Shown here: positions 2,903-17,746 of the stretch, in pieces
Position numbering within the stretch: position 1 is the stretch's first letter
Layout of the letters: each line of letters begins with the position of its first letter
UHGV virus genome: UHGV-0072542
Reading direction: 5' to 3' (one strand)
Length of the DNA stretch: 17,746 bases
DNA from: a virus
Position numbers and translations under genes: made by a program
The notes under the pieces: model-generated
The model's input: only the letters and a program-made list of their open reading frames with translations
Database searches by the model: none
What the model was told of the DNA's origin: nothing

Positions 2903-3446
2903 CAGCACAGCTCCGCAAACATTCGCGGTCGTCCCAGAATGTCAGAGATGGCCCAGCTCACATCGCGCCACAAATCCGATGTCTGTATATCCAGTGCGTC
3001 CGCCCGGCGATCGCCCTTGTCCGTTGTGTCCGCATCGCGGTAACGCTCCAGAATCAGGGCACGTGTGGCGGTATAAACAGCATTGCGCCAGTGCCAGAGA
3101 TTGACGCTTTCTCCGTTAATTACGGGTGCCGGAACATCGGCCAGCGTCTGATGGCCCACCACCCGCTCGCCCGATTTGAAAGTGAATGGCCCGGCGTCTG
3201 ATGGCCGCCCGCCTGCTGTTCCTGCTGCCACGCTTCCAGTTCGCGGGTAACGTGAGCCACGGCCCCAGTGGCGGTATGCAGCAGGCGGGAGGTGGTCACG
3301 CGGCCCGGCAGTCGTACCGCCAGACGCAGCTCGCGCAGCACAATATCCGGCCAGAATGCACCTGCTGAAATGCGAGTGTCGCCATCATCGGTATCGGTGA
3401 TGTCGTCCTCTGCGGGTCCTGGTTCAGTTCTGGCAACCATACTCAT
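2902..3446 (-). pseudogene. L: head completion protein gpL, reading frame interrupted (N-terminal part in frame of 3120-3446, C-terminal part in frame of 2902-3231)
   Basis: N-part FWPDIVLRELRLAVRLP...LEAWQQEQQAGGHQT and C-part GHQTLADVPAPVINGESVNLWHW...ERYRDADTTDKGDRRADALD each align to recalled P2 gpL but lie in different frames. The junction coincides with a 13-bp direct repeat GCGTCTGATGGCC (3144-3156 and 3194-3206) spaced 50 bp apart. Removing one 50-bp period restores a continuous gpL-like ORF. Confidence 0.55.
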
Positions 3447-3461
3447 GGAGTTCACTCCTGA

Positions 3462-3533
3462 AAAAAAATCGGGCGGTGGGTGCGCGGTGTAAACGGTCAC
3501 GGAGTCAAACCGGAACACCGCGCACGCCGCCCG
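3462..3533 (-). terminator. putative intrinsic terminator between M and L (long GC-rich stem, then U8 on the minus-strand RNA)
   Basis: Inverted arms cgggcggtgggtgcgcggtg (3470-3489) and caccgcgcacgccgcccg (3516-3533) flank a 26-nt loop. On the minus strand they are followed by eight U (plus-strand AAAAAAAA at 3462-3469). Confidence 0.4.
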
Positions 3534-3549
3534 CTGACGGGGTCAGTCG

Positions 3550-4350
3550 TTAACCGCGCTTCGCCTTCTGCGACGCGGTGGTTTTTCGTGTTGCAGGCTT
3601 CTGCGTTGTCTTTTTACTTTTGCTGCTTTCGTCCTGCGTCTGCTGTGCGCTGGCGTCTTCTGGTGCGGCTGCGGAATCGGCTTTTTTCAGGGCGCGGGAA
3701 AGGGTTGCAATCTCGCGTTTCACACCTGCGTTCGGGTTCAGGTGCATCGCTTCGCGCAGCAGCTTCAGTGATGAGGCCATGTTGTCTGCATCGGTCAGGC
3801 CACGACGGGCAAAGGCACACGCCTTGCATAATTTGGCGCGCACTTCGTCCGGCATGTCCTGGTTGGCGACAATTTCCCAAAGTGTGTCCAGTGGTTCGAT
3901 AAAGGCGGATAAATCCGCGTCGGCATCCGTCCCGGCCTGCGTCAGTACCGGGTTGCAGATTTCTTCGGTCAGTACCGTGGCAGCAGTACGGCCAAAGTTA
4001 TCCGGCATGATGAGGTTGTGACGGACCACATATGCACCAATACGCAGCGCCAGCGGAAGATCGCCGCAGTCAATCGCCCACACCATCAGCGTGGCAATTA
4101 CTTCGTCCTGTTGCCCGCCGTCAGTCTCCAGCGTTCCCTCAATCCAGCCGGAAAAGTCCGGCAACAACTCTTTTTTGATGGCGGCTTTCGCGCTTCTGGC
4201 CTGTACGCCCTTTAGCCTGGCCTGTGCCAGACGCAGACGATACAGCACCTCTTCATGCGCGGTACGCGCGGCGTGGTCCACACCTTCATTCGCCCGGCCT
4301 GCGCGCTGTGCCATCACGTTCTGCCAGTGTTGTTGTGCAGGAGTAATCAT
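3550..4350 (-). CDS. M: terminase small subunit (P2 gpM-like)
   Basis: 266 aa; its position after the capsid gene and its sequence character fit P2 gpM. ATG at 4350 with a GGAGAG SD. Confidence 0.8.
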   Translation of the reverse strand: MITPAQQHWQNVMAQRAGRANEGVDHAARTAHEEVLYRLRLAQARLKGVQARSAKAAIKKELLPDFSGWIEGTLETDGGQQDEVIATLMVWAIDCGDLPLALRIGAYVVRHNLIMPDNFGRTAATVLTEEICNPVLTQAGTDADADLSAFIEPLDTLWEIVANQDMPDEVRAKLCKACAFARRGLTDADNMASSLKLLREAMHLNPNAGVKREIATLSRALKKADSAAAPEDASAQQTQDESSKSKKTTQKPATRKTTASQKAKRG

Positions 4351-4367
4351 TTTTTCTCTCCGTTACA

Positions 4368-4386
4368 GGCGGGCATGATGCCCGCC
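4368..4386 (-). other. GC-rich hairpin between N and M (no U-tract)
   Basis: ggcgggcatgatgcccgcc is a perfect palindrome lying 9 nt downstream of the N stop on the minus strand. It may be an RNA-stability or partial-termination element. Confidence 0.35.
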
Positions 4387-4395
4387 GTGAGTTGA

Positions 4396-5448
4396 TTAGC
4401 TGTCGGCGAACTTCAGGCCAGTGACCATCGCGCACTTGCCATAGTCTTCAACGACATAAGCGTCATTGATGGACTGGTAGGTGGCGATGCGGTTGTATTC
4501 CGGCTCGTCTTTCATCAGGCGACGCATTGAACCTTTCTGCCAGTAAATCGACAGGTTGTTGAACGAGGTGATCAGCATCGTTGCATCCGGGAAGAACGGT
4601 GCAAGGAACACACCCAGCCCGCCAATGGTGCGCGATGACAGGATGAGCTGCCCGGCAAGTAATTCCGCATTGGGATTCTGGCCGCTGATGCTGTTCAGCA
4701 CGGGCAGACGCAGCGAGTTAAACAGGTTGCGTCCCATAATCACCACGAGGTCGTCTGCTTCCTTGTGCCATTCATCCAGCAGGGATGAGCGCGCATCCTG
4801 TACCAGTGCATCAGGGTTCGCGTATTTACCCGCGTGCGCCACAGTGTTGTCCATGTTGCGGGAGGTCAGCGTCACGTCATTCATTACGCGCTCGCTGGCA
4901 TCGGTTCTGATGTGCTCCAGCCAGCCCACGTTAACGTCCTGAAGCAGCTTGTTGGTGTGAAAATCAGACTCGTAGGCGTGGGATGTGCCGTTAAAGCCAA
5001 TCATGATGCGATCAAGCGCTACCTGCCGGGCGATCTGTGTACTGATACGGGACTGAAAATCGCTGTGGGCCGCCCAGGTATCAAGCTGTGGGTACGAAAT
5101 AAAGGTATCGTAGTTCACCTGTTCGCACTGGTACTGACGAGACTTCATATCGATCACGTTATTCGGGTTACGGCGTTTGATGCCGTCATAACTGCTATTC
5201 GTGCGCGCAATTGGCCCGGTGGTGTCCAGGAGGATTTTTTCGCCTTTCTGGTCGGTCACGCCGATCACGTTAATTCTTTTCGTAAATTCGGTACTTTCCT
5301 TTGAGGCGTTTTCAAAACGCTGCTGCACCGCGGGTTCCACGGTAAATCGCGATACCAGTGCAGATACCGGGATATTGTTAAGCGACGCCTGCTGCGCCAT
5401 ATAGCAACCCAGCTTGTTGCGGGTAATATCTGACATCACCAGATTCAT
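4396..5448 (-). CDS. N: major capsid protein (P2 gpN-like)
   Basis: 350 aa. SRFTVEPAVQQ, KRINVIGVTDQKGEKI, ...FFPDATMLITSFNNLSIYWQ...YVVEDYGKCAMVTGLKFADS match the recalled P2 gpN throughout. ATG at 5448 with an AAGGAG SD; an alternative ATG lies at 5436. Confidence 0.9.
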   Translation of the reverse strand: MNLVMSDITRNKLGCYMAQQASLNNIPVSALVSRFTVEPAVQQRFENASKESTEFTKRINVIGVTDQKGEKILLDTTGPIARTNSSYDGIKRRNPNNVIDMKSRQYQCEQVNYDTFISYPQLDTWAAHSDFQSRISTQIARQVALDRIMIGFNGTSHAYESDFHTNKLLQDVNVGWLEHIRTDASERVMNDVTLTSRNMDNTVAHAGKYANPDALVQDARSSLLDEWHKEADDLVVIMGRNLFNSLRLPVLNSISGQNPNAELLAGQLILSSRTIGGLGVFLAPFFPDATMLITSFNNLSIYWQKGSMRRLMKDEPEYNRIATYQSINDAYVVEDYGKCAMVTGLKFADS

Positions 5449-5471
5449 AAAAAATTTGCTCCTTTGTCTTA

Positions 5472-6308
5472 TCAGAAGTCAGCCAGCTGGTCGGAGGCTG
5501 CGCCCGTTGCGGTGAACCGGTTCTGCGGATCGCCGTCCTGCGTGCGCAGTTTTTCCTTCAGTGCTGTCAGCTCTGTGGTCAGTGACGTGATTTTCTGGCG
5601 GTCCTGCTGATGGCGGGTTTCCAGCACATTAAAACGGTCGATAATGTCGGCCTGTGACGTTGCGACGCCTTCCACCGCTTCCTGAATACGGGAAAAACTG
5701 GCGTCATCCGCTTTGCGGCCACGGCCAATAATCCCCATTACGCGGTTAAACCACTGGGTGCCTTCTTCCTGGCGTTGTTCTGCCATTTCGATGATTTCAG
5801 ACTCGATGGCTTCGGAGATAAGCGGCGCTTCACCCTGGACACTGTTGAACGTCATTACCGCCTGACGTTGCTGTGCCGTGAATTTCAGGCGCTCAGTGCC
5901 CAGGCTTGCCGGGGTGTCGGTCATCGCCAGCCCGACCAGATAGGCGCGCCCGTTAACGGAGAACTGCGGGTGCAGTTCGATACTGGAATAGATTTTCTTG
6001 CCGTCCGCGACAAGCTGCTTCATGCGCTCGGTCGGTTCGATTTCTGCATACAGCGCAGTACGTCCGGCCAGCGGACCTTCCGTAATGTCTTCCGTACTCA
6101 GTGCGGTGACATCGCCCATTGCGGAAAATTCGCTTGACGGGCATGGCGAGAGATAGTGCTCAACGTTCACGCGGGCAGCGTAAACATCCGGGTTGAAGTT
6201 CTCGGCGGCTTCACGCAGATGCACCGGACTGATTTCACGGCCATCAACAGTTGATCCGGAGACAGCCACGCGAAACTTTTTGCGGGATGTCTTTTTTTCA
6301 TTAGCCAT
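5472..6308 (-). CDS. O: capsid scaffolding protein (P2 gpO-like)
   Basis: MANEKKTSRKKFRVAVSGSTVDGREISPVHL aligns to the recalled P2 gpO N-terminus (MAKKVSKFFRIGVEGDTCDGRVIS), and the product has an acidic coiled-coil C-terminus. The start is taken as the ATG at 6308 (GAGGGG SD); the longer ORF-track start is at 6341. Confidence 0.8.
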   Translation of the reverse strand: MANEKKTSRKKFRVAVSGSTVDGREISPVHLREAAENFNPDVYAARVNVEHYLSPCPSSEFSAMGDVTALSTEDITEGPLAGRTALYAEIEPTERMKQLVADGKKIYSSIELHPQFSVNGRAYLVGLAMTDTPASLGTERLKFTAQQRQAVMTFNSVQGEAPLISEAIESEIIEMAEQRQEEGTQWFNRVMGIIGRGRKADDASFSRIQEAVEGVATSQADIIDRFNVLETRHQQDRQKITSLTTELTALKEKLRTQDGDPQNRFTATGAASDQLADF

Positions 6309-6462
6309 AGTTTTTGCCCCTCTGACTGGTTCTTCAGTCATGATGGCAAAGCGTAACAGGCTGATACAAAGGGCTTTTGTTGTAAGAAAACGGCCAGAGC
6401 AGGGGGTTAAGGAGAACGGTTTCGCGCGCGGGTAATCTTCCTGTAATTACTCAGGGGGAGCA
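6309..6462. promoter_or_regulatory. divergent intergenic region between O (-) and P (+); expected site of late promoters
   Basis: A 150-bp non-coding gap between divergently oriented packaging and capsid operons. This is where P2 has its Ogr-dependent P and O late promoters. I could not find a convincing TGT-N12-ACA activator site by eye. Confidence 0.35.
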
Positions 6463-8214
6463 ATGATTCAGGACGCTTTTGTGCGCCAGCGTGCGCAGCA
6501 ACTTTACTGGCAGGGTTATCCGCCCGCAGAAATATCACGTCTGATGGGAATAAACCCGAACACGATTTATGCGTGGAAAAAACGCGACCAGTGGGATGAA
6601 ACGCCACCCGTGCAGCGTGTCACGCAGTCCATCGATGCGCGCCTCATCCAGCTTACTGAAAAACAGAATAAAACAGGCGGTGACTTTAAGGAAATAGACC
6701 TGCTGACCCGGCAGCTTAAAAAGCTGCATGATGGCCAGCCGGATGTGATGGCCGCAGGAAAGAAAGGCCGGGCGAAAAAACTCAAAAATCATTTCACGCC
6801 GGAACAGATTTCCGCACTGCGGGAAAAAATCATCAGCAGGCTGGAGTGGCATCAGCGGGGCTGGTTTGACTCCCTGACCCTTTGCAGGGAAGCCGGGATA
6901 CGTAACAGGATGATCCTGAAATCCCGACAGATTGGGGCGACCTGGTATTTTGCACAGGAAGCTCTGCTGATGGCGCTGCGTGACGATGTGGCGCAACCTT
7001 ACCAGCGTAACCAGATTTTTTTGTCTGCGTCGCGTCGTCAGGCGTTCCAGTTTAAAAGCATTATTCAGAAGGCCGCGGCTGAAGTTGATGTGGAGCTGAA
7101 AGGGGGCGATAAAATCACCCTCTCCAACGGCGCAGAGCTGCATTTTCTCGGCACTTCTGCTGCGTCGGCACAGTCCTATACGGGCAATTTTTATTTTGAT
7201 GAATTTTTCTGGGTCAGTCGCTTTGCTGAACTGCGCAAGGTGGCTGGCGCTATGGCAACCCTCAGCGGACTGCGGCGCACCTACTTCTCCACGCCATCCA
7301 CCGAAACGCACGAGGCATACGCCTACTGGAACGGCGACCGCTGGAACGAGAAAAAGGCCTCGCATAAACGCCAGCGTTTTTCTGTGGACTGGAAAACGCT
7401 GCATAACGGGCTTATCTGCCCTGACCGGACGTGGCGGCAAATTGTCACGCTGGAAGATGTGGTTAATCACGGCTGGAAACACACCGATATCGACGAAATT
7501 CGTGATGAAAACACCGAAGACGAGTTCCTCAATCTCTATATGTGTGAGTTTGTCCGCGAAGGGGAATCGGCATTTAACCTGAATATCCTGATTGGCTGCG
7601 GTGTTGACGGATACGACGACTGGAAAGACTGGAAACCTTTTGCTCCCCGCCCGATGGGGAATCGTCCGGTATGGATTGGGTATGACGCAAACGGCAGCAG
7701 TGGAAACGGCGACAGCGGCGCAGTGTCCGTGGTGGTTCCTCCGGCTGTTCCTGGTGGCCGTTTTCGAACGGTGGAGACGCGACGCGTTCAGGGGCTGGAG
7801 TTTGAAGAACAGGCCAGAGTCATTGAAGAGTTCACGTATCGCTACAACGTGGAACACATCGGCATTGATGTGACGGGCGGGAACGGGGAGGCTGTTTATC
7901 AGATAGTGAAACGGTTTTTCCCTGCAGCTATTCCGTACACCTTCACGCTGTCATCAAAACGGTCGCTGGTACTGAAAATGCTGCAAATAATGCGCGCCGG
8001 GCGGTGGGAATACGATCGCGCTGAACGCGAGCTGGTCGCAGCCTTTAACGCCGTGCGTAAGGTGAAAACACCGGGCGGCTTTATCACTTACGAAACGGAC
8101 CGCGCGAGGGGGATCAGCCACGGCGACCTTGCGTGGGCAACCATGCTTGCTGTCATTAACGAACCGATTGGCGGCGAAGGAGAAAACGAGCGTTTCACGG
8201 TTATGGAGTTCTGA
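6463..8214 (+). CDS. P: terminase large (ATPase) subunit (P2 gpP-like)
   Basis: 583 aa. ATG at 6463 preceded by GGGGGAG. Sequence character and position immediately upstream of the portal gene fit P2 gpP. Confidence 0.9.
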   Translation: MIQDAFVRQRAQQLYWQGYPPAEISRLMGINPNTIYAWKKRDQWDETPPVQRVTQSIDARLIQLTEKQNKTGGDFKEIDLLTRQLKKLHDGQPDVMAAGKKGRAKKLKNHFTPEQISALREKIISRLEWHQRGWFDSLTLCREAGIRNRMILKSRQIGATWYFAQEALLMALRDDVAQPYQRNQIFLSASRRQAFQFKSIIQKAAAEVDVELKGGDKITLSNGAELHFLGTSAASAQSYTGNFYFDEFFWVSRFAELRKVAGAMATLSGLRRTYFSTPSTETHEAYAYWNGDRWNEKKASHKRQRFSVDWKTLHNGLICPDRTWRQIVTLEDVVNHGWKHTDIDEIRDENTEDEFLNLYMCEFVREGESAFNLNILIGCGVDGYDDWKDWKPFAPRPMGNRPVWIGYDANGSSGNGDSGAVSVVVPPAVPGGRFRTVETRRVQGLEFEEQARVIEEFTYRYNVEHIGIDVTGGNGEAVYQIVKRFFPAAIPYTFTLSSKRSLVLKMLQIMRAGRWEYDRAERELVAAFNAVRKVKTPGGFITYETDRARGISHGDLAWATMLAVINEPIGGEGENERFTVMEF

Positions 8215-9260
8215 TGAGCAGAAAAAATAAAAAAGTGCGCATGAGTTCACGCATTGATCTCGCTGATGCGCTCAGGAAAGAATCATCGCTCAGTGCATTC
8301 ACATTTGATGGTCCTTATCGCCTGACCGGGCATGACCTGCTGGACAATATGTACTGTGCTGATAACGGGCGGTGGTATGAAACCCCGGTGGACTGGTACG
8401 GTCTGGCAAGAGCTGCCCGGCAAACGTCCTGGCATCAGTCTGCGCTTTACTTTAAGCGCAATGTATTACTCGGTTGCTACATCCCGCACCCGCTGCTTTC
8501 CCGGCAGGATTTCTCGGCGCTGGCGCTGGACTGGTTTGTGTTCGGTAACGCATTCCTTGAGCTTCGGAGCAATATGCTCGGCGAACCGCTTAAATTACGG
8601 CACGCCCTGGCGAAATACATGCGACGCGGAAGCGATCTTGAATCATGGTGGTATGTGCAGGATGGCAAGGACGCGTTTCAGTTTCGCCCTGACAAAGTGT
8701 GCCACCTGATGAATCCGGATATTAACCAGGAAATCTACGGCATGCCGGAATATCTTGGCGCATTACTCTCGGCCAGCCTTTCTCATTCGGCGGACATGTT
8801 CAGAAAACTGTACTACGACAACGGATCCCACGCCGGGTGCATCATCTACATCGGTGCAGCGCAGGTAAACCGCGAAAGCATGGACTCCCTGAAAGAAACG
8901 CTACAGGGTGCGCGTGGTGGTGGTGCGTTTAAAAACGTGCTCATTCATGCGCCCAACGGGGGCAAAGAAGGTGTGCAAATTTTGCCGTTCCAGCAGATCA
9001 CCGCAAAGGATGAGTTCATGAATGTTAAGGCGGCATCCCGTGATGATGTACTGGCTGCGCACCGCGTTCCGCCGCAACTGATGGGGGCGATGCCGGGCGA
9101 AAAAAGTGCGTTTGGTGATGTGGAGAAGGCCGCGCGGGTTTACGCAATTAACGAGCTGATGCCCGTCATGGAGGCCATGAAGCACATCAATGACTGGCTT
9201 GGCGAAGAGGTGATCCGCTTTAACCCTTACGCACTGTTAGACACCCAGCCCACATCCTGA
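8214..9260 (+). CDS. Q: portal protein (P2 gpQ-like)
   Basis: 348 aa; the start overlaps the terminase stop (TGATG). Size and position fit the P2 portal. Confidence 0.85.
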   Translation: MSRKNKKVRMSSRIDLADALRKESSLSAFTFDGPYRLTGHDLLDNMYCADNGRWYETPVDWYGLARAARQTSWHQSALYFKRNVLLGCYIPHPLLSRQDFSALALDWFVFGNAFLELRSNMLGEPLKLRHALAKYMRRGSDLESWWYVQDGKDAFQFRPDKVCHLMNPDINQEIYGMPEYLGALLSASLSHSADMFRKLYYDNGSHAGCIIYIGAAQVNRESMDSLKETLQGARGGGAFKNVLIHAPNGGKEGVQILPFQQITAKDEFMNVKAASRDDVLAAHRVPPQLMGAMPGEKSAFGDVEKAARVYAINELMPVMEAMKHINDWLGEEVIRFNPYALLDTQPTS

Positions 9261-9286
9261 CGCGCTTCGCTTGTCTGCTGCTTCGC

Positions 9287-9311
9287 CGGGGCATAAAAAA
9301 TTTATGCCCCG
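9287..9311 (+). terminator. hairpin downstream of portal gene (possible terminator; no clear U-tract)
   Basis: cggggcataaaaaatttatgccccg is a palindrome lying 27 nt after the Q stop. Confidence 0.3.
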
Positions 9312-9612
9312 ACTCTCCAGCTCCTGTATCAGTCAGATAATTTCACGACGCCTTCCAGTTTATCGCCACCATCGACGGTCAGGCTCTTACGCAATCCCAC
9401 CGCGTTGACTGCATGTTCTCGCCGCCTCAGTGCGATTTTGACGGCCTTACCTTTCACCCCATTAAATCAGAATCCCTCACGTATTTTTCACGCTCAGCGT
9501 GAGAAATACGGCCATTCTGTCGTGTCGCTGCGACATCGTTAAGGGAACGCTATTTACCCCCTGAAACGCGGGCTGTTCCCCCGTCACCTGCGCGCAGAAA
9601 AAACGCGTTTTT

Positions 9613-9711
9613 TTGTGCATGCACGGATCCTTGACGGATCCAGCCGCCATGCGGGCCGAAAGGGTAAAAAGTCGTTCAAAAAAATTGTGCAAATTTGTGC
9701 ACTATTGTGCA
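9613..9711. repeat. TTGTGCA direct repeats (three copies at 10-bp phasing, plus one upstream copy embedded in palindrome GTGCATGCAC)
   Basis: TTGTGCA occurs at 9685-9691, 9695-9701 and 9705-9711, and again at 9613-9619. The region is intergenic, between cos (expected nearby) and the cargo operon. Confidence 0.5.
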
Positions 9712-9718
9712 TTGAAAT

Positions 9719-9740
9719 AAACGCCCTGGAGGAGGGCGTT
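9719..9740 (-). terminator. intrinsic terminator at the end of the cargo operon (hairpin with T-rich flanks both sides)
   Basis: aacgccctggaggagggcgtt has an 8-bp stem and is flanked by T/A-rich runs. It lies immediately 3' of the stop at 9745-9747. Confidence 0.5.
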
Positions 9741-9744
9741 TTAC

Positions 9745-10152
9745 TTATCTTTTATAGCCTTGCCCCTTTCTGGCCAGCGCCCTGATGGCCGGGCGTGCCA
9801 ACACCATATTTTGGCAATGATGAATTGCCCGGCAAAATTCATCTCTACCCATTGGATGCTCAACTGGCAACGTTAAATACAGGTTCCATGCGTCGCCTAA
9901 AAGTTGGGCTATCTTTTGTTCTTCAGATGTCAGCAAGCAAGCGGTATCCGTAAAATAATCATACTTTTCATGTATGTTATTTAACGGTTTTGTCTGTAGT
10001 GCAGCCTGAGCTATACGGTATGCCTGAAGCATACTGGCGTCGTTGATATCCATTCCGAACGGAATTTCTGATGATTGTGACTCTGCATCTTCAAGCCTGG
10101 CAATTTCTTTACGTAAGAAGTACTTCAACTCTTGTTTCTGTTTTCTGTTCAT
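9745..10152 (-). CDS. hypothetical protein (135 aa), second gene of two-gene cargo cassette
   Basis: The ATG at 10150-10152 overlaps the upstream stop (ATGA). The gene is AT-richer than the flanking phage genes. No recognisable family; the product is [25 protein letters not shown]...[28 protein letters not shown]. Confidence 0.6.
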
Positions 10153-10481
10153 GCGTTTTTTTCCTTTTTGTCTGTCACTTCTTTCCTGATAATTTCATTG
10201 CACAAATCCACGCACTCATTGCAGATGTAAACAGACGGTCCGGCAATCACCTTTGTGACTTCGTACTGGGATTTATTGCAGAAACTGCAATAAACCGTCT
10301 TCTCGCCTGAAGTCCATGTTTTGCTGGTTTCGCCAGACATCAGTTGTTTGAGGTCTTTTTCACGACGAAGAACTATCTGGCCACATTCAGCTATTTTTTG
10401 GATGTTGACATTTTCTGCTTTCGCCAGCGCTTCCATCCGCTCAATCAGTCGCTGCGCTTTTTCTCTGTCAATGTGTTGCAT
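10149..10481 (-). CDS. small protein with C-terminal ClpX-type C4 zinc-binding domain (ZBD) and N-terminal helical region
   Basis: The C-terminus [40 protein letters not shown] is near-identical in pattern to the N-terminal zinc-binding domain of E. coli ClpX ([34 protein letters not shown], recalled). ATG at 10481 with an AAGGGGGA SD 5 nt upstream. Confidence 0.7.
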
Positions 10482-10544
10482 TGTGTCCCCCTTGTTTATG
10501 CTCCCGGGTTAAAGTCATCAGGGCGGATGCGCCCTGATGTTGTG

Positions 10545-10856
10545 TTATTCGGGAAATAACGCCCGGATATTTCCGGCCATCTGACTGGTTATCTGTGCGG
10601 CTGATACTGGCTGTGACGCGGGGCGTTCTGTCCTGGTTTGTGTCACTGATAACGCCTCATCATCAGCCCATGCAGCCAGTCGGTAAGCCTCTGCCGGATT
10701 CATTTTCAGTAGTGCCAGCCCGGCCAGAAAAGCCACGCGTTGACCACTTTTGCGGGCTTCTGGTGTAAGGCTGTCCAGCCAGGCGCATGCTTCGCCTTCG
10801 TTCTTGACGGCGGCGGGCTTCAGATAGAAACTTATCCGTCTGGTTGGTGTCGTCAT
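10545..10856 (-). CDS. parR: ParR-like centromere-binding protein (type II partition)
   Basis: RRISFYLKPAAVKNEGEACAWLDSLTPEARKSGQRVAFLAGLALL resembles the recalled R1 ParR N-terminus (RTIAFKLNPDVNQTDKIVCDTLDSIPQGERSRLNRAALTAGLALY). It lies 4 nt downstream of parM. Start taken at the internal ATG at 10856. Confidence 0.65.
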   Translation of the reverse strand: MTTPTRRISFYLKPAAVKNEGEACAWLDSLTPEARKSGQRVAFLAGLALLKMNPAEAYRLAAWADDEALSVTQTRTERPASQPVSAAQITSQMAGNIRALFPE

Positions 10857-10860
10857 TGGT

Positions 10861-11820
10861 TTACTCCTTGTCCATTGCGTACAGCCCATTAACCAGAGCA
10901 AACTGTGGCACCCCGTCCGCGATGAAGGTCGCATTAACTCCGCAGGCTTCGCGGATAGCGGGTGCCACAATCTCCGCCCCGCCACCGACAACCATCACCC
11001 GCCCGTAACCCGAAAAACCCGCCAGCGCGCGGATCACGCGTTGTTTCAGTGTTTCTTCCTTTTCACGAATAACCGCCATCAGGCTGGCGTAATGCGCGTC
11101 ATTGTGGATGTGCTGGCGCAGCCAGGCTTCATCATGGCGATGTTCGATAATGGTATTGGCGATGTGGTGACTGGTACGCATACCGTTAGTGGCCATCACC
11201 GACAGTACGGCATCGGCCATCAGGGAAACGCCTACGTGTGGATCGCAAAACACCTGGCTGATACCTGCCAGTTGTCCCTGAACCTTTGCCACATCCAGCG
11301 TGGTTCCGCCTAAATCCACAATCAGCAGGGATTCAAACGGACTCATGTCAGCCAGTGCTTTAAAACCAGCCGGAATGGATTCAGGCATAACCCGTACGTT
11401 ACGGATAGTGAATGCTTTTCCGTTCTGGTACGCCACCGGGCGCATGACGTTTGCTTTTTTGCGGTTGATGTTGGCCATGTCCGGCTGTGCGTTTGTGTCG
11501 AAATATTCGCTCAGTGGCAGGGTGACAACCACATCCACTTCCTGTGGTGTGATGCCTGATTTGACCAGCGCGTGATGAATGGCAATGACATTCACATCGC
11601 TGTACTGGTATTGCGTGTCGGTCGTCTGGACAAAGCGATCGCTGACTGGATCAAAACCATAGCGCACGCCATCAAGCATGTAGTTCGCGGGCTGCGTGCC
11701 ACCGAACGGCGCAGACCATTCCGACTTGAAGCTGTTCGGGCTGATGGCGTTGCGGCGTTCGCCGTTCTCAGTCCATGCCAGCTTGATGTTGGTGGAGCCG
11801 TCATCGATACAAATTTTCAT
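10861..11820 (-). CDS. parM: ParM/StbA-like actin-like segregation ATPase
   Basis: 319 aa. IDDGSTNIKLAW, ISPNSFK, YSDVNVIAIHHAL, IRNVRVMPESIPAG, LLIVDLGGTTLDV, VMVVGGGAEI and VNGLY match the recalled plasmid R1 ParM along its whole length. ATG at 11820 with an AAGGAAAA SD. Confidence 0.85.
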   Translation of the reverse strand: MKICIDDGSTNIKLAWTENGERRNAISPNSFKSEWSAPFGGTQPANYMLDGVRYGFDPVSDRFVQTTDTQYQYSDVNVIAIHHALVKSGITPQEVDVVVTLPLSEYFDTNAQPDMANINRKKANVMRPVAYQNGKAFTIRNVRVMPESIPAGFKALADMSPFESLLIVDLGGTTLDVAKVQGQLAGISQVFCDPHVGVSLMADAVLSVMATNGMRTSHHIANTIIEHRHDEAWLRQHIHNDAHYASLMAVIREKEETLKQRVIRALAGFSGYGRVMVVGGGAEIVAPAIREACGVNATFIADGVPQFALVNGLYAMDKE

Positions 11821-11850
11821 GTCGCTTTTCCTTATGTTGATTAATTAATC

Positions 11851-11962
11851 GTTTACGGGATTCTGAAATCCCGTTTTTGCCTGTTTTATGCGCGCTTCAT
11901 ATATCGCGGCGCGTTTTTTGCTCATTTACGGGATTTGTGAATCCCGTTTCTGTCTGTTTTTT
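11851..11962. repeat. two copies of a ~35-bp hairpin-containing repeat flanking the A stop / parM upstream region
   Basis: Copy 1 is tttacgggattCTGAaatcccgttttt (hairpin 11855-11874). Copy 2 is tttacgggattTGTGaatcccgtttct (hairpin 11928-11947). Both are followed by T-runs on the plus strand. Spacing is 73 bp, and copy 2 lies inside the 3' end of gene A. Confidence 0.5.
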
Positions 11963-14719
11963 GTTTCCACTGGTCAGGCCACCCCGCAGCAGGTCTGCTT
12001 TGCGGCGGGCGCGTTCAGTGGTTTCACTGATTCTCTGTGCGTGCTCTGCGTCGCGGATGGCGCGCAGCATGTCAGAAAGCACGGTAACGGGTGTTTTCAT
12101 GGTGTTCTGGTCCTGCTGAAGTGTGGATGCCAGGCGTGCGGCGGCTTCGGGGTCTGATGCCCCCAGCTGTTCCAGATAGCTGGCGACCGGGTTATGGCGG
12201 ATCTCCGTGCTGCTTACGCCGTGGTTACGGCTCAGGCGCTGCCAGAGCTGCGTGATCCGGCTGTCCGGTCGGGTATCCGGTTTGCGTACAATTTCAAATC
12301 CCTGCGGTGCAATGATGCTGCCGTCAACGTACAGGCTGCCTCCCCGTAACAGGTGCTGCATCTGCTGTTCACCGATATGCAGGCCGAGAGATTCGGCAGA
12401 TTCCCGCCATTCTTTAGCGAGTAATTCGTGGTTATCAGGCAAAGGCCGCGGCTGTTTGCGGCTCTGTGTCCAGCTCTGCATTTCATCACTGCTGTTTTTT
12501 GCCTGTTTGTCACGCAGCGAACGCATCAGCGCCCGGCGTTCGTGCCGTTTCAGTGAGCGCATCCATTCATTCACATCAATGCCGTCAGGAAGCTGCGGCC
12601 ATGGTGCTGGCCGTTCTTCCGGCTGTTCTGTCCCGTTGTTGTCCGTTTCCTGTACACGGGGACAGTTATTGCCACGAGTCCAAGGGGCGGCAGGGCCGCC
12701 CTGAAGGTCAAAACCATTTTCGCGGGCGCTGTCTTCAGCTTCCGGTTTGCGTCTTACCAGCTTCCAGTTATCCGGATGCGTGCACACACGGGAGGATTCC
12801 CCGATGAGTGGTGACCAGATCCCGTAAATCTGTACGCTCTGTTCGCCGTAATCGTTCAGCTCATCGGCGAGGTCGTAGGCGGTGCGAATCAGGTAGTCTT
12901 TGCGTGGAACAAGTACGCCGCCCTGTTTCTCTATGTAGGTGGCAAAACATCCGGCATCAGCGGCAGCGAGTACCGCATCCATTGCGTCATCCTTCAGCCG
13001 TTGCGGGCCTTCCGGGTTGCGTGCCATCTGGCTGGCAAGGCGGCGGAGTTCACGCCACACCTGACGGGAGGGGATGCCAAAGAACTGGAACTGGCGGACC
13101 CGGTGAAGGCGCGCCCAGCCAATGGCACGCTCCACGCTCTCGGCCATTGATTTTCCGGATTCATGGTCAACGCGTGGTTTGCCCGTTTTCGGGTCGATGC
13201 CATCCACGGCGCGGCTGTCCAGGTTTTTTCCGATGTAGGTCGCGATATAGCTGGTTGGTGTGCCTTTTGAGCCGTCGACGTACTCCGCCTCAAAGCGCGG
13301 GGTTATGTCATCGCCCAGCTCGTGGCGGTCTTCCTGAATGGCAATATCGCAGACGTGAGACACAATGGTGTCGATTTCGTCCGGATGCGCAAAAACCATC
13401 ATGTGCCAGTGCACGGTACCGTCATGGTGAGGCTCCGCTGTGCGGATGCCATACCAGCGCAGACCTTCACGGTTCAGTTTCTTGCGGACCGCTGCAAAAA
13501 ACGTGTTAACCAGGTAATCGCTGGAGTCGCGCATGGTGGCCCCGTTCCATTTGGGATTCGGATGACCGTTCTCTGTTGTTGCGTGGTATTTTGACGGGCA
13601 GGTGACAGTCAGAAACACCGCTCTGTCGCCACGGGCTTCGGCCAGAAGTTCCAGTCCCTTCATGGTGGCCATCATTTCTGCCTTACGGTGAACCGGGTTA
13701 CTTACTCCCGCGTAATACACTGTCTCGAGATCAATCGTGAACCCGTCTTCGTTTTCCAGCATGAAACTTTTCAGGAAATCGCGTGTTTTCTCGCGCTGTG
13801 CGCGAAACTCGCTTAACGCGTCCTGGCTCAGATAGGGCGATGTTTTTCTGGAAACCAGACAGGCGGCGCGGAGTTGTTCTTCTCTCCACTCGCAACGTAA
13901 CAGCCACAGTTTGTGTTTCCACCATTGCGCACAGGTCAGGCGAAGGATTGCGCCCGGCAGCAGCTCCGTGTCCGGTTCGTTCCTCCGGTCTTTGTCTGTT
14001 GTCAGTGCGTCATAATGCGGAGGCATGGCGTGCAGGTGTAACGCCATGCGGGCCAGCATCTGATACGCCTTCAGCGTTACATCCATGGTCAGCTCGCCAT
14101 CAGTCGCGCCAAAGCCATCGCAGAGTTTTTCGAAGGTGCTGCTGAACATCGCCGCCGTCATGGTGGCCAGCGTCTGTATCTGGTGCTTGTTGAGCTGCGG
14201 CAGGTAAAGCAAATCATCCAGGCGTTCGCGTCCGGCAAGGGAGCGATAACCCGGTGTCAGCCAGTGTCCGTCAGTGCGATCCAGACGTTCGAATATTTTG
14301 CGCAGGGTTCCGCGTGCATAGCGTTCCGCCTGCCAGCTCTTTTTGCCTTTCCGGCGATCGGCTTCCTGTTTTTTGCGCAGGAAGGAGAGGTGGCGAATAA
14401 GCGGATCGCGCAGATAGGACGGCAGCAGGCGCAGCGAGGCCATGGCTTCATCCACCGCGCCGCGTGCCTGTTTTCTGGCGTCTCCTGCCAGTGTGATGGT
14501 TTTGTCCTGTTTTTCCTGTGCGTCCAGGCTTTTATTAATCAGGTTGCCCAGCGGCGTGGCGGAGAACGCCGCATCAGCCATTTCCTGGCGGCGCTCGTTC
14601 TCTACCCGGTAGGCATCCAGCCAGGAGGAAAGCGCGGATTCAGGAGCGGGGATCCCCGTTCCTTCACGCCCCACTGCGTGGCGCGGTTGTTGCCAGTCCC
14701 TGATGTACTCTGCCGTCAT
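11897..14719 (-). CDS. A: replication initiator endonuclease (P2 gpA-like, rolling-circle HUH family)
   Basis: 940 aa with the HUH-type motif VHWHMMVFAHP and the paired-tyrosine motif TSYIATYIGKN. Its position downstream of the early operon fits P2/186 gene A. Confidence 0.85.
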   Translation of the reverse strand: MTAEYIRDWQQPRHAVGREGTGIPAPESALSSWLDAYRVENERRQEMADAAFSATPLGNLINKSLDAQEKQDKTITLAGDARKQARGAVDEAMASLRLLPSYLRDPLIRHLSFLRKKQEADRRKGKKSWQAERYARGTLRKIFERLDRTDGHWLTPGYRSLAGRERLDDLLYLPQLNKHQIQTLATMTAAMFSSTFEKLCDGFGATDGELTMDVTLKAYQMLARMALHLHAMPPHYDALTTDKDRRNEPDTELLPGAILRLTCAQWWKHKLWLLRCEWREEQLRAACLVSRKTSPYLSQDALSEFRAQREKTRDFLKSFMLENEDGFTIDLETVYYAGVSNPVHRKAEMMATMKGLELLAEARGDRAVFLTVTCPSKYHATTENGHPNPKWNGATMRDSSDYLVNTFFAAVRKKLNREGLRWYGIRTAEPHHDGTVHWHMMVFAHPDEIDTIVSHVCDIAIQEDRHELGDDITPRFEAEYVDGSKGTPTSYIATYIGKNLDSRAVDGIDPKTGKPRVDHESGKSMAESVERAIGWARLHRVRQFQFFGIPSRQVWRELRRLASQMARNPEGPQRLKDDAMDAVLAAADAGCFATYIEKQGGVLVPRKDYLIRTAYDLADELNDYGEQSVQIYGIWSPLIGESSRVCTHPDNWKLVRRKPEAEDSARENGFDLQGGPAAPWTRGNNCPRVQETDNNGTEQPEERPAPWPQLPDGIDVNEWMRSLKRHERRALMRSLRDKQAKNSSDEMQSWTQSRKQPRPLPDNHELLAKEWRESAESLGLHIGEQQMQHLLRGGSLYVDGSIIAPQGFEIVRKPDTRPDSRITQLWQRLSRNHGVSSTEIRHNPVASYLEQLGASDPEAAARLASTLQQDQNTMKTPVTVLSDMLRAIRDAEHAQRISETTERARRKADLLRGGLTSGNKKQTETGFTNPVNEQKTRRDI

Positions 14720-14725
14720 AGTGAT

Positions 14726-15091
14726 TTACTTCGTCATGCCATTCAGGGTGTCGCGGCAGACTGTAGCCAGCCGCTGAATTTCCAGCACGGTGTCTTCTGT
14801 GTCGGCATGGCGATGTGTGATGCGGATGCTGTCGGCAATCACATCGACGATTGCAGAGGATGGGCGCTGGTAAATGCCAATAACGGACGGGGTGCCACCT
14901 TCAATGCGGTAAAGCCTGTAATTTCCCTCGTGGCTGTCAATCATGTAGCGACCATCAATAACAATCTTTCCGTCAGCGAGCTGCGGTACAGGCAGGGATT
15001 TCAGGTACATGTCATAACGTTCACGCACGCGAACGGCAAGATCACGCTCTGTGTTGAGCAGGTATTCAAGAAAGTCGTTGGCGAGAATCAT
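14726..15091 (-). CDS. hypothetical early-operon protein (121 aa)
   Basis: ATG at 15091 with an AAGAGGA SD; the gene ends 6 nt before gene A. No family recognised. Confidence 0.55.
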   Translation of the reverse strand: MILANDFLEYLLNTERDLAVRVRERYDMYLKSLPVPQLADGKIVIDGRYMIDSHEGNYRLYRIEGGTPSVIGIYQRPSSAIVDVIADSIRITHRHADTEDTVLEIQRLATVCRDTLNGMTK

Positions 15092-15232
15092 TGCGGCAAT
15101 CCTCTTGTTACAGATGTGCGAAGGCCTCCCGCCACAAGGTGCAGGAAAGGCCCGGAACAGGAATTAATGGAGTTTGTTTTGCTGCCGGATGAGCTGCTGA
15201 AGCCCGACGTGGTTTCCGGCAGTTGGAGGTGC

Positions 15233-15478
15233 TCATGCTCTGATTTCCCTCAGTAGCTGGTTGAACATCTGGGTTAGTGGGTTGCTACACCCAAACGGCA
15301 TCGGGTTTACCTGATAAGAAAAGCGACCGCCTGTTTTGCGCTCTTTTCTTATGACTGAACCGCTGCGCCAGAGACGGCGTAGCTCCGCATTAATGGTTGT
15401 GGTTGGTGTATTCAGTGCTGCGGCGATTTCTCCACCGCTACAACCCGGATTGGCAGCGATGTAGTCCAGAATGGTCAT
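15233..15478 (-). CDS. hypothetical early-operon protein (81 aa)
   Basis: The ATG at 15476-15478 overlaps the upstream stop (ATGA). No family recognised. Confidence 0.5.
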   Translation of the reverse strand: MTILDYIAANPGCSGGEIAAALNTPTTTINAELRRLWRSGSVIRKERKTGGRFSYQVNPMPFGCSNPLTQMFNQLLREIRA

Positions 15479-15678
15479 CTGCGTGACTCCTGTACCTGTC
15501 TGATAAGATTCACCTGCACCACGTTGGTGGCGCAGAAGTAAGTGCCGTCAGTGAGATAGATGTGATGTGCATCCTTTTCTGAACGGTGTTTGTCGATTGT
15601 GGTAATCAGGCGTTCGTCAACTTCGTATTCACGTCCTCTGGAGGTGAAACGAACGACAGGAAAATGCTTAATTGCCAT
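15475..15678 (-). CDS. hypothetical early-operon protein (67 aa)
   Basis: The internal ATG at 15678 is preceded by an AAGGAGG SD 5 nt upstream. The ORF-track start at 15729 is a GTG with no SD. Confidence 0.5.
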   Translation of the reverse strand: MAIKHFPVVRFTSRGREYEVDERLITTIDKHRSEKDAHHIYLTDGTYFCATNVVQVNLIRQVQESRR

Positions 15679-15764
15679 TACGCCTCCTTGACGTGTGCGA
15701 ATACCTCCGCGAATGCGGATTGTTTTCACATTTTCTTATTTAACCTGGGGGCTTATTTGCGCGG

Positions 15765-15878
15765 TTATTCTTCAGTGAAAAAGCGTTCAATCTTTTTTAC
15801 TGAATTAATAATTCGCATAATCCCAATGGCGCAGACCACCGAAATAATCAGAACAAGCCATGAGATAAATATACTCAT
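15765..15878 (-). CDS. small hydrophobic peptide (37 aa, single predicted transmembrane helix)
   Basis: Hand translation gives MSIFISWLVLIISVVCAIGIMRIINSVKKIERFFTEE. The ATG at 15876-15878 overlaps the stop of the upstream gene (ATGA). Below the ORF-track length cutoff. Confidence 0.4.
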   Translation of the reverse strand: MSIFISWLVLIISVVCAIGIMRIINSVKKIERFFTEE

Positions 15879-16117
15879 GCGATATTTCCCAGCTTATACG
15901 GTTCAATATGTTCCCCGCATTCTGCGGCATAGATCAGCTCGGAAAGTTCGTTAAGTGCATCCAGATCATCAGCGTAAAAAGCCACGTCATACAGACTTCG
16001 GATTGCTCTGGTCAATGAGTCACGGGCCGCACGTTCAGCATGAGCGCCTGATGCACTTAAGCGAAAATAAAAACGCTCAAGTGCTTTGTTAATGAGAGTT
16101 TTATATTCTTTGCCCAT
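15875..16117 (-). CDS. hypothetical early-operon protein (80 aa, acidic)
   Basis: ATG at 16115-16117 with an AAAGGG SD. The ORF-track start at 16120 is a GTG. Confidence 0.5.
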   Translation of the reverse strand: MGKEYKTLINKALERFYFRLSASGAHAERAARDSLTRAIRSLYDVAFYADDLDALNELSELIYAAECGEHIEPYKLGNIA

Positions 16118-16128
16118 CACAACGCCCT

Positions 16129-16407
16129 TTAATCTGCTTTCTGAATTTCAGCTTCTGAATCCATACAAATAATTTCGATATAGGGTTCATCGTCATTAAC
16201 CTGACGTGCCTTTTCAGCTTCGCTAATGATTTCTCGTACGGTCTGGTACGGAAGCTCCACAGTCAGGCGCGTACCGTTCAGATAAACGTAAGTAGCTGCG
16301 TTTTTTTCGAATGGAACAACTCCGTCAATGGCTGATGCGCGTAATAACAGTTCACCGCGAAAATCAATAAAACGGATAAATACACCTTGTGCATGCTCTT
16401 TGGTCAT
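16129..16407 (-). CDS. hypothetical early-operon protein (92 aa)
   Basis: The internal ATG at 16407 has an AGGUG SD 5 nt upstream. The ORF-track start at 16467 is a TTG. Confidence 0.5.
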   Translation of the reverse strand: MTKEHAQGVFIRFIDFRGELLLRASAIDGVVPFEKNAATYVYLNGTRLTVELPYQTVREIISEAEKARQVNDDEPYIEIICMDSEAEIQKAD

Positions 16408-16417
16408 AAAGCACCTG

Positions 16418-16768
16418 TTATAAATCAGCCTGTTTAATAAAACTTTGCCCGCGAAGCAGACGATCAACCGTGCGAAGTGCTTCGTATAATGTGAAATCCT
16501 GCCCGAAGTGATTGTCGCCGCAGTTCAATGCAAAAATGCGGTTTCCGGTAAACGGATTGCGTGGGCATTTGTGGACCACGATTCCAGCTTTCTCAATCAG
16601 CCAGGCATGCTCGCCGATTTGTTTTACAGCGTGGCCATCCGGTGTTGCGTGCGTCTCGTTCAGGTTATAGCGACTGTTACTACGTGATGCACTGGTAGCG
16701 ACGTGGTGTACATGGCGTTCTACGCCATTACGAAATTTGGAGTATGGATTATTAGCGTTTTTTTTCAT
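16418..16768 (-). CDS. hypothetical early-operon protein (116 aa), possibly regulatory
   Basis: ATG at 16768; basic N-terminus. Its position corresponds to the cII/regulatory slot of 186-like early operons, but no motif was confirmed. Confidence 0.5.
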   Translation of the reverse strand: MKKNANNPYSKFRNGVERHVHHVATSASRSNSRYNLNETHATPDGHAVKQIGEHAWLIEKAGIVVHKCPRNPFTGNRIFALNCGDNHFGQDFTLYEALRTVDRLLRGQSFIKQADL

Positions 16769-16789
16769 GATGGTGCTCTGTTCATTGTT

Positions 16790-16993
16790 TTAGCTGTTAG
16801 CCAAAGCGTCTTTTAACATCGCCACAAGGTTTACTTCAGGCTTTTCCATTTTGGCGCGTTTGGGTCGGATAATAATTCGACCGTCAGCCAACATCTTTTT
16901 GCATGTATTAAGAGGGATACCTGTTATCTCTGCATATTTCTGCAGGGATACATAGGGGGCATTCACATTGATATTGATGGTTATACCTGACAT
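16790..16993 (-). CDS. small putative DNA-binding protein (HTH; excisionase/Cox-like candidate)
   Basis: 67 aa. YVSLQKYAEITGIPLNTCKKMLADGRI looks like a helix-turn-helix. ATG at 16993 with an AGGAGG SD. Confidence 0.5.
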   Translation of the reverse strand: MSGITININVNAPYVSLQKYAEITGIPLNTCKKMLADGRIIIRPKRAKMEKPEVNLVAMLKDALANS

Positions 16994-17009
16994 CCCACTA
17001 GCCTCCTGA

Positions 17010-17216
17010 TCAGGAAGATTTGTTTTGTTCTTTCTGGGTTAGCTCTAGGCCGCGAAGGAAGATCATGCGCGCCATGTTAGAGGATGAGCGTTGTTCTTTA
17101 GCTGCCATTTCATCAATGACGGCTCGCTCCTCGAGGGACAGCCGAAGTGCCAGTCTTGGACCTGTGGCGGTGTTACGCGGAATGCGTGATCTGGTATCGT
17201 GAAGAACTTGTTTCAT
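17010..17216 (-). CDS. first early-operon gene; putative ribbon-helix-helix-like regulator (Cro/Cox/Apl position)
   Basis: 68 aa. RLALRLSLEERAVIDEMAAKEQRSSSNMARMIF has a beta-strand-helix-helix pattern. It is divergent from the repressor gene and sits directly downstream of the operator/promoter. Confidence 0.45.
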   Translation of the reverse strand: MKQVLHDTRSRIPRNTATGPRLALRLSLEERAVIDEMAAKEQRSSSNMARMIFLRGLELTQKEQNKSS

Positions 17217-17291
17217 AGTGGTATATTGTGATCATCTAATAGCTCGTGAAATCATTTTGGTATCAAAAAAGATACCTGTCAAGGTTTTTGT
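17217..17291. promoter_or_regulatory. divergent switch region: early promoter (minus strand) with palindromic operator in its spacer
   Basis: Minus-strand TTGACA (complement of 17277-17282), a 17-nt spacer, then a CAAAAT -10-like hexamer. The spacer contains the perfect palindrome GGTATC-AAAAAA-GATACC (17259-17276). A GGTAT half-site-like copy lies at 17219-17223. Confidence 0.45.
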
Positions 17292-17696
17292 ATGAAAAAT
17301 GATATTGGTCAGCGGTTGCGTGAGGAAAGGGAAAGATTGGGACTTAGTCAAGTTGCCATGAGCGACATTGGTGGAGTCAAAAAGCTAACTCAGCTTAGAT
17401 ATGAGAAAGGAGATAGCTTTCCTGATGCTGCGTATTTGGCAGCGCTGTCTCGTTTTGGCCTTGATGTTCAGTATGTTGTGTTGGGAATTCACTCATCTGA
17501 AACTTATAACGATGATGAGCAGGAGTTGATTACTCGCTTTCGAGCAGCTTCGTTAGATGTGAAAAATGCGGTGATTGGGGCTTTAAAAGGTGCGATCAGT
17601 GAAAAGGAAACTCAGCCATCAGGACGTGAGTTAAATATTTCTGGTGGTAATAACCGTATCGCTGGTCGTGACTATAACGAAACTAAGGGTAGGTGA
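17292..17696 (+). CDS. phage repressor, XRE-family HTH (immunity repressor candidate)
   Basis: 134 aa. IGQRLREERERLGLSQVAMSDIGGVKKLTQLRYEKGDSFPDAAYLAALSRFGLDV is a canonical XRE HTH. The gene is divergent from the early operon and AT-rich. Confidence 0.8.
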   Translation: MKNDIGQRLREERERLGLSQVAMSDIGGVKKLTQLRYEKGDSFPDAAYLAALSRFGLDVQYVVLGIHSSETYNDDEQELITRFRAASLDVKNAVIGALKGAISEKETQPSGRELNISGGNNRIAGRDYNETKGR

Positions 17697-17712
17697 TAGT
17701 AGGGAGGTGACA

Positions 17713-17746
17713 TGGCCGTCAACTCAAACGGTTCAAACAATCGCGT
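17713..17746 (+). CDS. 5' end of an unidentified gene running off the window (integrase would be expected here in 186-like layouts, but the N-terminus does not confirm it)
   Basis: ATG at 17713 preceded by GGGAGGTGA; reads MAVNSNGSNNR... to the window edge. Confidence 0.3.

Follow-up and report, generated by a model that had tools for sequence, protein, structure and literature searches.

Among the described relatives of the locus analysed here are the type II (ParMRC) partition systems of plasmids. In R1/NR1 (StbA/StbB), an actin-fold ParM is accompanied by a small ParR encoded downstream and by cis-acting repeats upstream of parM, the R1 centromere parC consisting of two blocks of five 11-bp A/C-rich iterons around the promoter. 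R1 is a low-copy plasmid, and the pB171 system, whose ParR has a solved structure (PDB: 2jd3), is also plasmid-borne. Comparable machinery has been described in elements that normally reside in a chromosome. SrpMRC, a type II locus of the SXT/R391 integrative and conjugative elements (ICEs), stabilises their excised, rolling-circle-replicating form (PMC4489591). Similarly, in the integrated prophage CGP3 of Corynebacterium glutamicum, AlpAC pairs an actin-like protein with an adaptor whose DNA-binding site lies upstream of the operon that encodes it; the system is induced early and connects circular phage DNA with actin-like filaments, and efficient phage DNA replication depends on it (PMC4446434). 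We analysed a stretch of 17,746 nucleotides from the virus genome UHGV-0072542 (hereafter the window) and find an R1-like parM-parR pair, together with a candidate parC, inside a P2-family prophage of Escherichia coli. With moderate confidence, we favour the view that this cassette is a functional type II (ParMRC) core module that would act on the phage genome only while the latter is an extrachromosomal circle.

The host element is a P88-like (Xuanwuvirus, Peduoviridae) temperate prophage of the P2 family. The region matches phage P88 and E. coli prophages at 92-100% coverage and 96-100% identity (Escherichia phage P88 itself: 92% coverage, 97% identity), Citrobacter phage phiSM and other Xuanwuvirus/P88-like phages match as well, and a megablast search with the head genes returns the P88 type only. 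The P2-type order of capsid, terminase, portal, gpA, repressor and integrase, together with the high nucleotide identity to P88, places the element within the P88/Xuanwuvirus group. On the minus strand, gene A (gpA; 11897-14719) encodes a 940-aa rolling-circle replication endonuclease (Pfam Phage_GPA, 1.3e-128) directly upstream of parM and in the same orientation; parM and parR come next, followed by two small cargo genes and then the portal, terminase and capsid genes, and lysis genes also flank the region.

The same cassette is found in P88, other Xuanwuvirus prophages, phiSM and CP-933T-like elements, with ParM 95-100% identical and again placed between gpA and the portal gene. Nothing substantive differs between the P88-type members and the window; the adjacent cargo genes vary. 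The P88 annotations in GenBank/RefSeq and PHROGs already read “plasmid segregation protein ParM” and “partition protein”. With these annotations and the work of Rousset et al. (PMC9122126), both the presence of the cassette in such prophages and the hypothesis of a phage-plasmid are already published. New here are the integration statistics, the cross-genus synteny, the phage ParM clade, the selection estimates, the two-palindrome candidate parC, the module boundaries and the model drawn from the ICE and CGP3 systems.

The gene parM (10861-11820, minus strand) encodes a 319-aa actin-fold segregation ATPase and is preceded by a ribosome-binding site (RBS), AAGGA, at 11829-11833. Its product matches the Pfam families StbA_N (6.9e-82) and ParM C-terminal domain (1.3e-68), and phmmer aligns residues 2-316 with the R1 ParM structures (1mwk and others) at an E-value of 1.6e-92. 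Over its full length the protein is 47% identical to R1-type StbA; an IncFIA ParM is closer, at 53%. Among the invariant residues are DDGSTNIK (6-13), E147, D169-LGGTTLD (with G171-T174) and GGGA (279-282). All nucleotide-binding positions are kept, and the phosphate-1, phosphate-2, catalytic and adenosine motifs of the ATPase are therefore intact. We note that just upstream of parM a non-coding element, ATTAATCAA (11836-11846), is conserved along with an AAGG RBS in phages of E. coli, Plesiomonas (locus L090) and Hafnia (locus L091), although their ParM identity is only ~62%; this element may be a weak -10 or a regulatory site.

After a gap of 4 nt, parR (10545-10856, minus strand) encodes a 103-aa ribbon-helix-helix (RHH) adaptor. 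Its true start is the ATG at 10856, which has its own Shine-Dalgarno sequence (AAGGAG, 10864-10869); a listed open reading frame at 10545-10991 with a TTG start was rejected as over-extended. The Shine-Dalgarno sequence overlaps the 3' end of parM: its last two bases are the first two of parM codon 319 (GAG, 10864-10866), directly before the TAA stop (10861-10863). From this arrangement, parR appears translationally coupled to parM. ParR matches Pfam Plasmid_stab_B (PF10784) at 1.7e-24. A single-sequence search of the PDB with ParR returned nothing; a profile built from phage and plasmid ParRs reaches the pB171 ParR structure (2jd3) over its full length, with an E-value of 3.7e-17.

Population data from 87 related loci, in 81 of which parR could be read, reveal how the ParR chain is partitioned. 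The N-terminal RHH part is constrained (dN/dS 0.12), while the linker is hypervariable (dN/dS 0.60). The stretch TRRISFYLKP, presumably the DNA-contacting strand of the RHH fold, is near-invariant in both ParR allele groups, with one locus reading RRISLYLKP. At the C-terminus, the motif NI(R/Q)xxFP is conserved across the related loci, and all divergent phage ParRs examined end in N(A/I)xxLFP. The R1 ParR C-terminus, KNAMKLIN, is the ParM-binding peptide (PDB: 4a62), and the phage motif resembles it, making it a putative peptide of the same ParM-binding type. R1 and phage ParR are alike in having an RHH N-terminus and a variable linker, followed by this putative ParM-binding motif in the phage proteins. 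An earlier note on this DNA, made from the letters alone, had recognised in 10861-11820 an R1-like ParM with all its actin-fold motifs, a ParR-like small protein downstream of it and hence an R1-type pair within a P2-family phage. The full-length structure match, the Pfam assignments and the gene context bear this out, with the coordinates of parR corrected as above, and the alignment that the note had called for reveals no loss of the phosphate, catalytic or adenosine motifs.

Upstream of parM lies a candidate centromere/operator (parC; 11821-11965, minus strand). Within it are two direct repeats of 42 nt each at a spacing of 73 bp: a proximal one (11849-11890) and a distal one (11922-11963), the latter sitting within the last 22 codons of gene A. 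Each repeat contains a 20-bp palindrome, ACGGGATTnnnnAATCCCGT, at 11855-11874 and 11928-11947, respectively, flanked by A/C-rich iteron-like tracts similar to the A/C-rich iterons of R1. The palindrome pattern is unique to this site both in the window and in the 42.7-kb homologous locus L001, two matches to it arose in 0 of 200 shuffles, and both repeat copies are present in 85 of 85 related loci. In Plesiomonas and Hafnia phages two repeats ~72-75 bp apart likewise precede parM, and in the relatives from Serratia and Enterobacter a large inverted repeat takes their place; GGGA-type half-sites recur upstream of parM in the relatives from all four genera. As judged from their architecture and position, the two palindromic repeats probably constitute parC and would be bound by ParR. 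Compared with R1, where the iteron blocks surround a promoter, the phage site differs in its two long palindromic repeats and in having no consensus promoter.

The cassette is under strong constraint. None of 87 parM copies in the related loci is disrupted (dN/dS 0.057), nor is any of 81 parR copies; the values for parM and for the RHH part of ParR (0.12) compare with 0.20 for the C-terminal part of gpA. Even degraded prophages keep both genes intact: that of E. coli EDL933 (L088) lacks the head genes and has an IS3 element directly beside parR, and that of O111 RM9322 (L089) has a gpA cut short by IS3. As for gpA itself, the Phage_GPA domain spans only residues 179-503 of its 940 aa, the long C-terminal part is the variable one, and the length of the protein ranges from 785 to 907 aa in distant relatives.

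The same arrangement extends well beyond E. coli. Contig scans with ParM yielded three near-identical genome loci and viral relatives of at least 97% identity only, and the divergent members were reached by a protein search with contig look-ups. This search reveals ParMs 54-63% identical in P2-like prophages of Plesiomonas, Hafnia, Serratia and Enterobacter, all located between gpA and the portal gene and each with a ParR next to it, in the order gpA-parM-parR-(cargo)-portal. Homologues at 52% identity or below are instead found on plasmids, some of them integrated, or on an ICE. In a neighbour-joining tree the phage ParMs group into a single clade with moderate support (106 of 200), and in the distant phages ParM identity (54-63%) exceeds that of gpA (29-55%) and portal (30-47%). 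A broad clade of P2-like phages has the cassette as a core module, fixed in place and syntenic; it is not a recent acquisition.

These observations bear on whether the cassette might be an inactive relic of a past recombination between plasmid and phage, an idea whose only pointer is that an integrating phage seems an odd place for a partition system. Such a relic would hardly show the dN/dS of 0.057, the uninterrupted parM and parR genes, the intact motifs and the synteny across genera described above; the selection data effectively refute it, and we regard it as extremely improbable.

The limits of the module can be drawn on both sides. At locus L052 the 3' end of gpA bears no relation to that of the window, yet the two sequences agree from the distal repeat on, which places the left boundary just upstream of the distal parC repeat. 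On the right, immediately after parR, a hairpin with a 10-bp stem (10516-10539; -19.5 kcal/mol, z -5.3) marks the boundary: its stem is conserved, its loop varies, and relatives diverge right after it into different cargo. The hairpin has a T-rich tail, and hence a terminator-like look, on the plus strand only, and may accordingly terminate antisense or late transcription.

The hairpin also marks the recombination boundary of a variable cargo locus (9261-10544, minus strand) that lies between parR and the portal gene, outside the partition cassette, and differs in content among relatives. It corresponds to the gpA-gpQ hotspot of P2-like phages (PMC9122126). In the window it includes a 110-aa protein with an N-terminal extension and, as its only domain, a ClpX-type C4 zinc finger (10149-10481, minus strand; Pfam 6.9e-18), along with a 135-aa protein for which Pfam returns nothing (9745-10152, minus strand). 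A PADLOC search with ParM, ParR and the two cargo proteins gave no significant match, the sole listing being a marginal RT_UG36 hit of the 135-aa protein (E 0.012, 12.5 bits). The two-gene cargo operon (9745-10481, minus strand) could be defence cargo or cargo that interferes with ClpX.

The proximity of this hotspot raises the question of whether parMR is itself an accessory “moron” of the gpA-gpQ region, kept for a benefit to the host or for the exclusion of competitors, be it through centromere-based incompatibility with ParMRC plasmids and related phages or through anti-phage defence. The cassette adjoins the defence hotspot and has been catalogued among its systems (PMC9122126), and its survival in the degraded EDL933 and RM9322 prophages would fit such a role. 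However, neither ParM nor ParR has a PADLOC match, and the position and content of the cassette are fixed across genera while true cargo turns over beside it. In addition, the candidate phage parC does not resemble plasmid iterons, nor does the phage ParR N-terminus resemble plasmid ParR (ParR identity 24-27%), so that cross-binding with plasmid counterparts is unlikely. We consider a moron function quite improbable. Taken together, the intact genes, the selection on them, the cross-genus synteny, the turnover of cargo right after parR and the lack of a PADLOC match argue that the cassette is neither a relic nor swappable hotspot cargo.

We find the cassette overwhelmingly in chromosomes. Of 5426 complete E. 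coli genomes, 1307 (24%) have the parMR segment; it occupies 1453 sites on chromosomes and 2 on plasmids, and carriers include O157:H7 and ST131 strains. The matching gpA type occurs, at a coverage of at least 80%, in 1328 genomes, and these counts indicate that gpA and parMR travel together. Positions 3209-17746 of the window are identical to prophages in NZ_CP148391 and other genomes. These identical prophages sit between tRNA-Leu (leuZ) and yecA, have a direct repeat of at least 124 bp, including the 3' half of the tRNA, at both ends and carry an intact 333-aa tyrosine integrase. The int-yecA junction is found in all 24 of the 24 longest contigs that carry this repressor. We note that one contig labelled as Vagococcus sp., a Gram-positive organism (L006), holds a 97% identical ParM in enterobacterial-type sequence and is probably contaminated or mislabelled.

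Only one credible episomal record emerges. NZ_CP148288.1, a circular “plasmid” of 34,461 bp, comprises an entire P88-like phage whose integrase is intact, and in another strain a phage 99.9% identical to it is integrated; the circle may represent an excised, replicating form that happened to be assembled. The other “plasmid” matches were rejected as episomes, since they are prophages inside large replicons or a linear fragment, the latter being the 26.7-kb “plasmid” of Shigella boydii.

This distribution weighs on the idea of a facultative or true phage-plasmid, in which an autonomous low-copy circle would use gpA with its origin and parC-parMR as a mini-replicon, for example where attB is absent or occupied. 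The replication gene and the partition cassette are indeed contiguous, the origin of P2-type phages lies inside gene A, and NZ_CP148288.1 offers a circular example. The P1-like phage-plasmid D6 encodes a StbA-type ParM 48% identical to that of the window, and the same idea has been raised by Rousset et al. (PMC9122126). D6, however, is maintained as a plasmid with plasmid-type replication, whereas the present element integrates and uses gpA. Against a plasmid existence stand also the 1453 chromosomal as opposed to 2 plasmid places, the yecA integration in 24 of 24 contigs of this genotype, the integrase kept by NZ_CP148288.1 and the integrated state of its near-identical counterpart. Furthermore, gpA initiates rolling-circle replication in the lytic phase and is repressed in lysogens. 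With a chromosomal lysogen, a P2-type gpA as replication gene and an intact integrase, the element does not match the phage-plasmid type, and we find stable plasmid maintenance unlikely. There is likewise a small chance of a dual lifestyle, in which integration would alternate with many generations as a low-copy rolling-circle plasmid sustained by a gpA(ori)-parC-parMR unit. If this were true, such phages would be an unrecognised group of integrative phage-plasmids and a very abundant one, with about a quarter of E. coli genomes carrying them.

Judged by the context that the earlier note itself had named as refuting it, ordinary chromosomal integration with an intact integrase, the extrachromosomal phage-plasmid that it proposed is not supported: the counts and the leuZ/yecA integration with its att repeats and integrase stand against it. 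Its alternative, a captured stabilisation module, holds in a deep evolutionary sense only; a recent capture is at odds with the cross-genus synteny and the phage ParM clade. The integrase that the note expected beyond the repressor is present in the identical copies, ~1 kb past the right edge of the window. The 11 codons visible at this edge (17712-17746, plus strand) are the start of a gene for a 216-aa membrane protein (Flk_N), which in the identical copies is followed by a YebY/DUF2511-like gene and then the integrase, so that two moron-like genes lie between the repressor and int.

The note's remark that an integrating prophage has no obvious need for active segregation is a fair point. 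Another possibility is that ParMR acts in the lysogen on the integrated copy, parting sister chromosomal loci or otherwise affecting chromosome segregation. A chromosomal parC is, after all, a feature of 24% of complete E. coli genomes, and the genes are intact even in defective prophages. Such an action has no known precedent, however, and parM lacks a consensus sigma-70 promoter and lies downstream of the repressed early operon. Integration sites also differ among relatives (leuZ/yecA here; a traF-like gene for phiSM), and no consistent chromosomal position would therefore be served. We view a role in the integrated state as very unlikely.

We therefore return to our favoured reading, a partition module for the transient circle. 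ParR dimers would bind the two palindromic repeats upstream of parM, and the C-terminal peptide of ParR would capture the growing ends of ATP-ParM filaments, whose elongation would push sister circles apart. P2-type replication gives circular monomers; those produced by gpA-driven rolling-circle replication, following infection or following excision and induction, would be the substrate. Copies dispersed in this way would leave both cell halves, and both daughters, with the phage. Dispersal would thereby reduce loss before re-integration or lysogenisation and support efficient replication. As long as the prophage is integrated and repressed, the cassette would stay idle.

By analogy with the ICE and CGP3 systems, a role on the transient circle is better supported than stable plasmid lysogeny. 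SrpMRC is the best functional analogue, as a type II locus of a normally chromosomal element that stabilises a transient excised circle replicated by a rolling-circle-type initiator. SXT/R391 are ICEs and not phages, and SrpMRC is distant from R1 ParM, whereas the phage ParM is close to it. AlpAC shares with the present cassette the setting of an integrated prophage and the pairing of an actin-like protein with an adaptor, but it belongs to a distant actin-like family and to a non-P2 phage of a Gram-positive host.

Several points weigh against a partition module for the circle. The candidate parC offers only two palindromic sites, as opposed to ten 11-bp iterons in R1, and on the plus strand the palindromes resemble weak intrinsic terminators (~-10 kcal/mol). 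The ParR allele groups show no co-variation with the palindrome variants. A promoter scan upstream of parM found no consensus sigma-70 site; a terminator scan found no terminator-like site on the minus strand between gene A and parM, and together these two results make read-through from the early operon into parM plausible. Rapid, multi-copy rolling-circle replication may in itself make active segregation unnecessary. To our knowledge, P2 and 186 are without such a cassette and yet thrive, so that it is not essential for the P2 life cycle. Finally, our literature search found no functional study of this cassette.

Two further features of the window concern its integrity and its limits. In the head-completion gene gpL, a 50-bp insertion (3144-3193) bounded by a 13-bp direct repeat, GCGTCTGATGGCC, distinguishes this copy from otherwise near-identical prophages. 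The insertion causes a frameshift, giving a 108-aa product (84 native residues, the rest out of frame) and a separate 85-aa call for the 3' part, compared with 164 aa normally. It is found in 0 of 1048 complete E. coli genomes that have gpL, and this copy may therefore be defective or the metagenome assembly wrong. As to its limits, the window equals the first 17,746 nt of the ENA metagenome contig ERZ1741949 NODE_133 (37,301 bp, coverage 20.08), and position 1 falls inside a SASA/DUF6645 gene. The contig exceeds the ~35.8-kb prophage by ~1.5 kb, which is weak evidence against its being a simple circular assembly of the phage.

In sum, a ParMRC-type cassette resides on an integrated prophage in about a quarter of complete E. 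coli genomes, under purifying selection stronger than that on the tested C-terminal part of gpA. SXT/R391 and CGP3 illustrate a principle by which integrating elements require partition of a plasmid-like kind while they are episomal. Should the cassette stabilise or position the transient phage circles, it would extend this principle to the tailed phages of Enterobacterales and would in turn bear on the stability of prophages, the efficiency of lysogenisation and the spontaneous induction of prophages in pathogenic E. coli.

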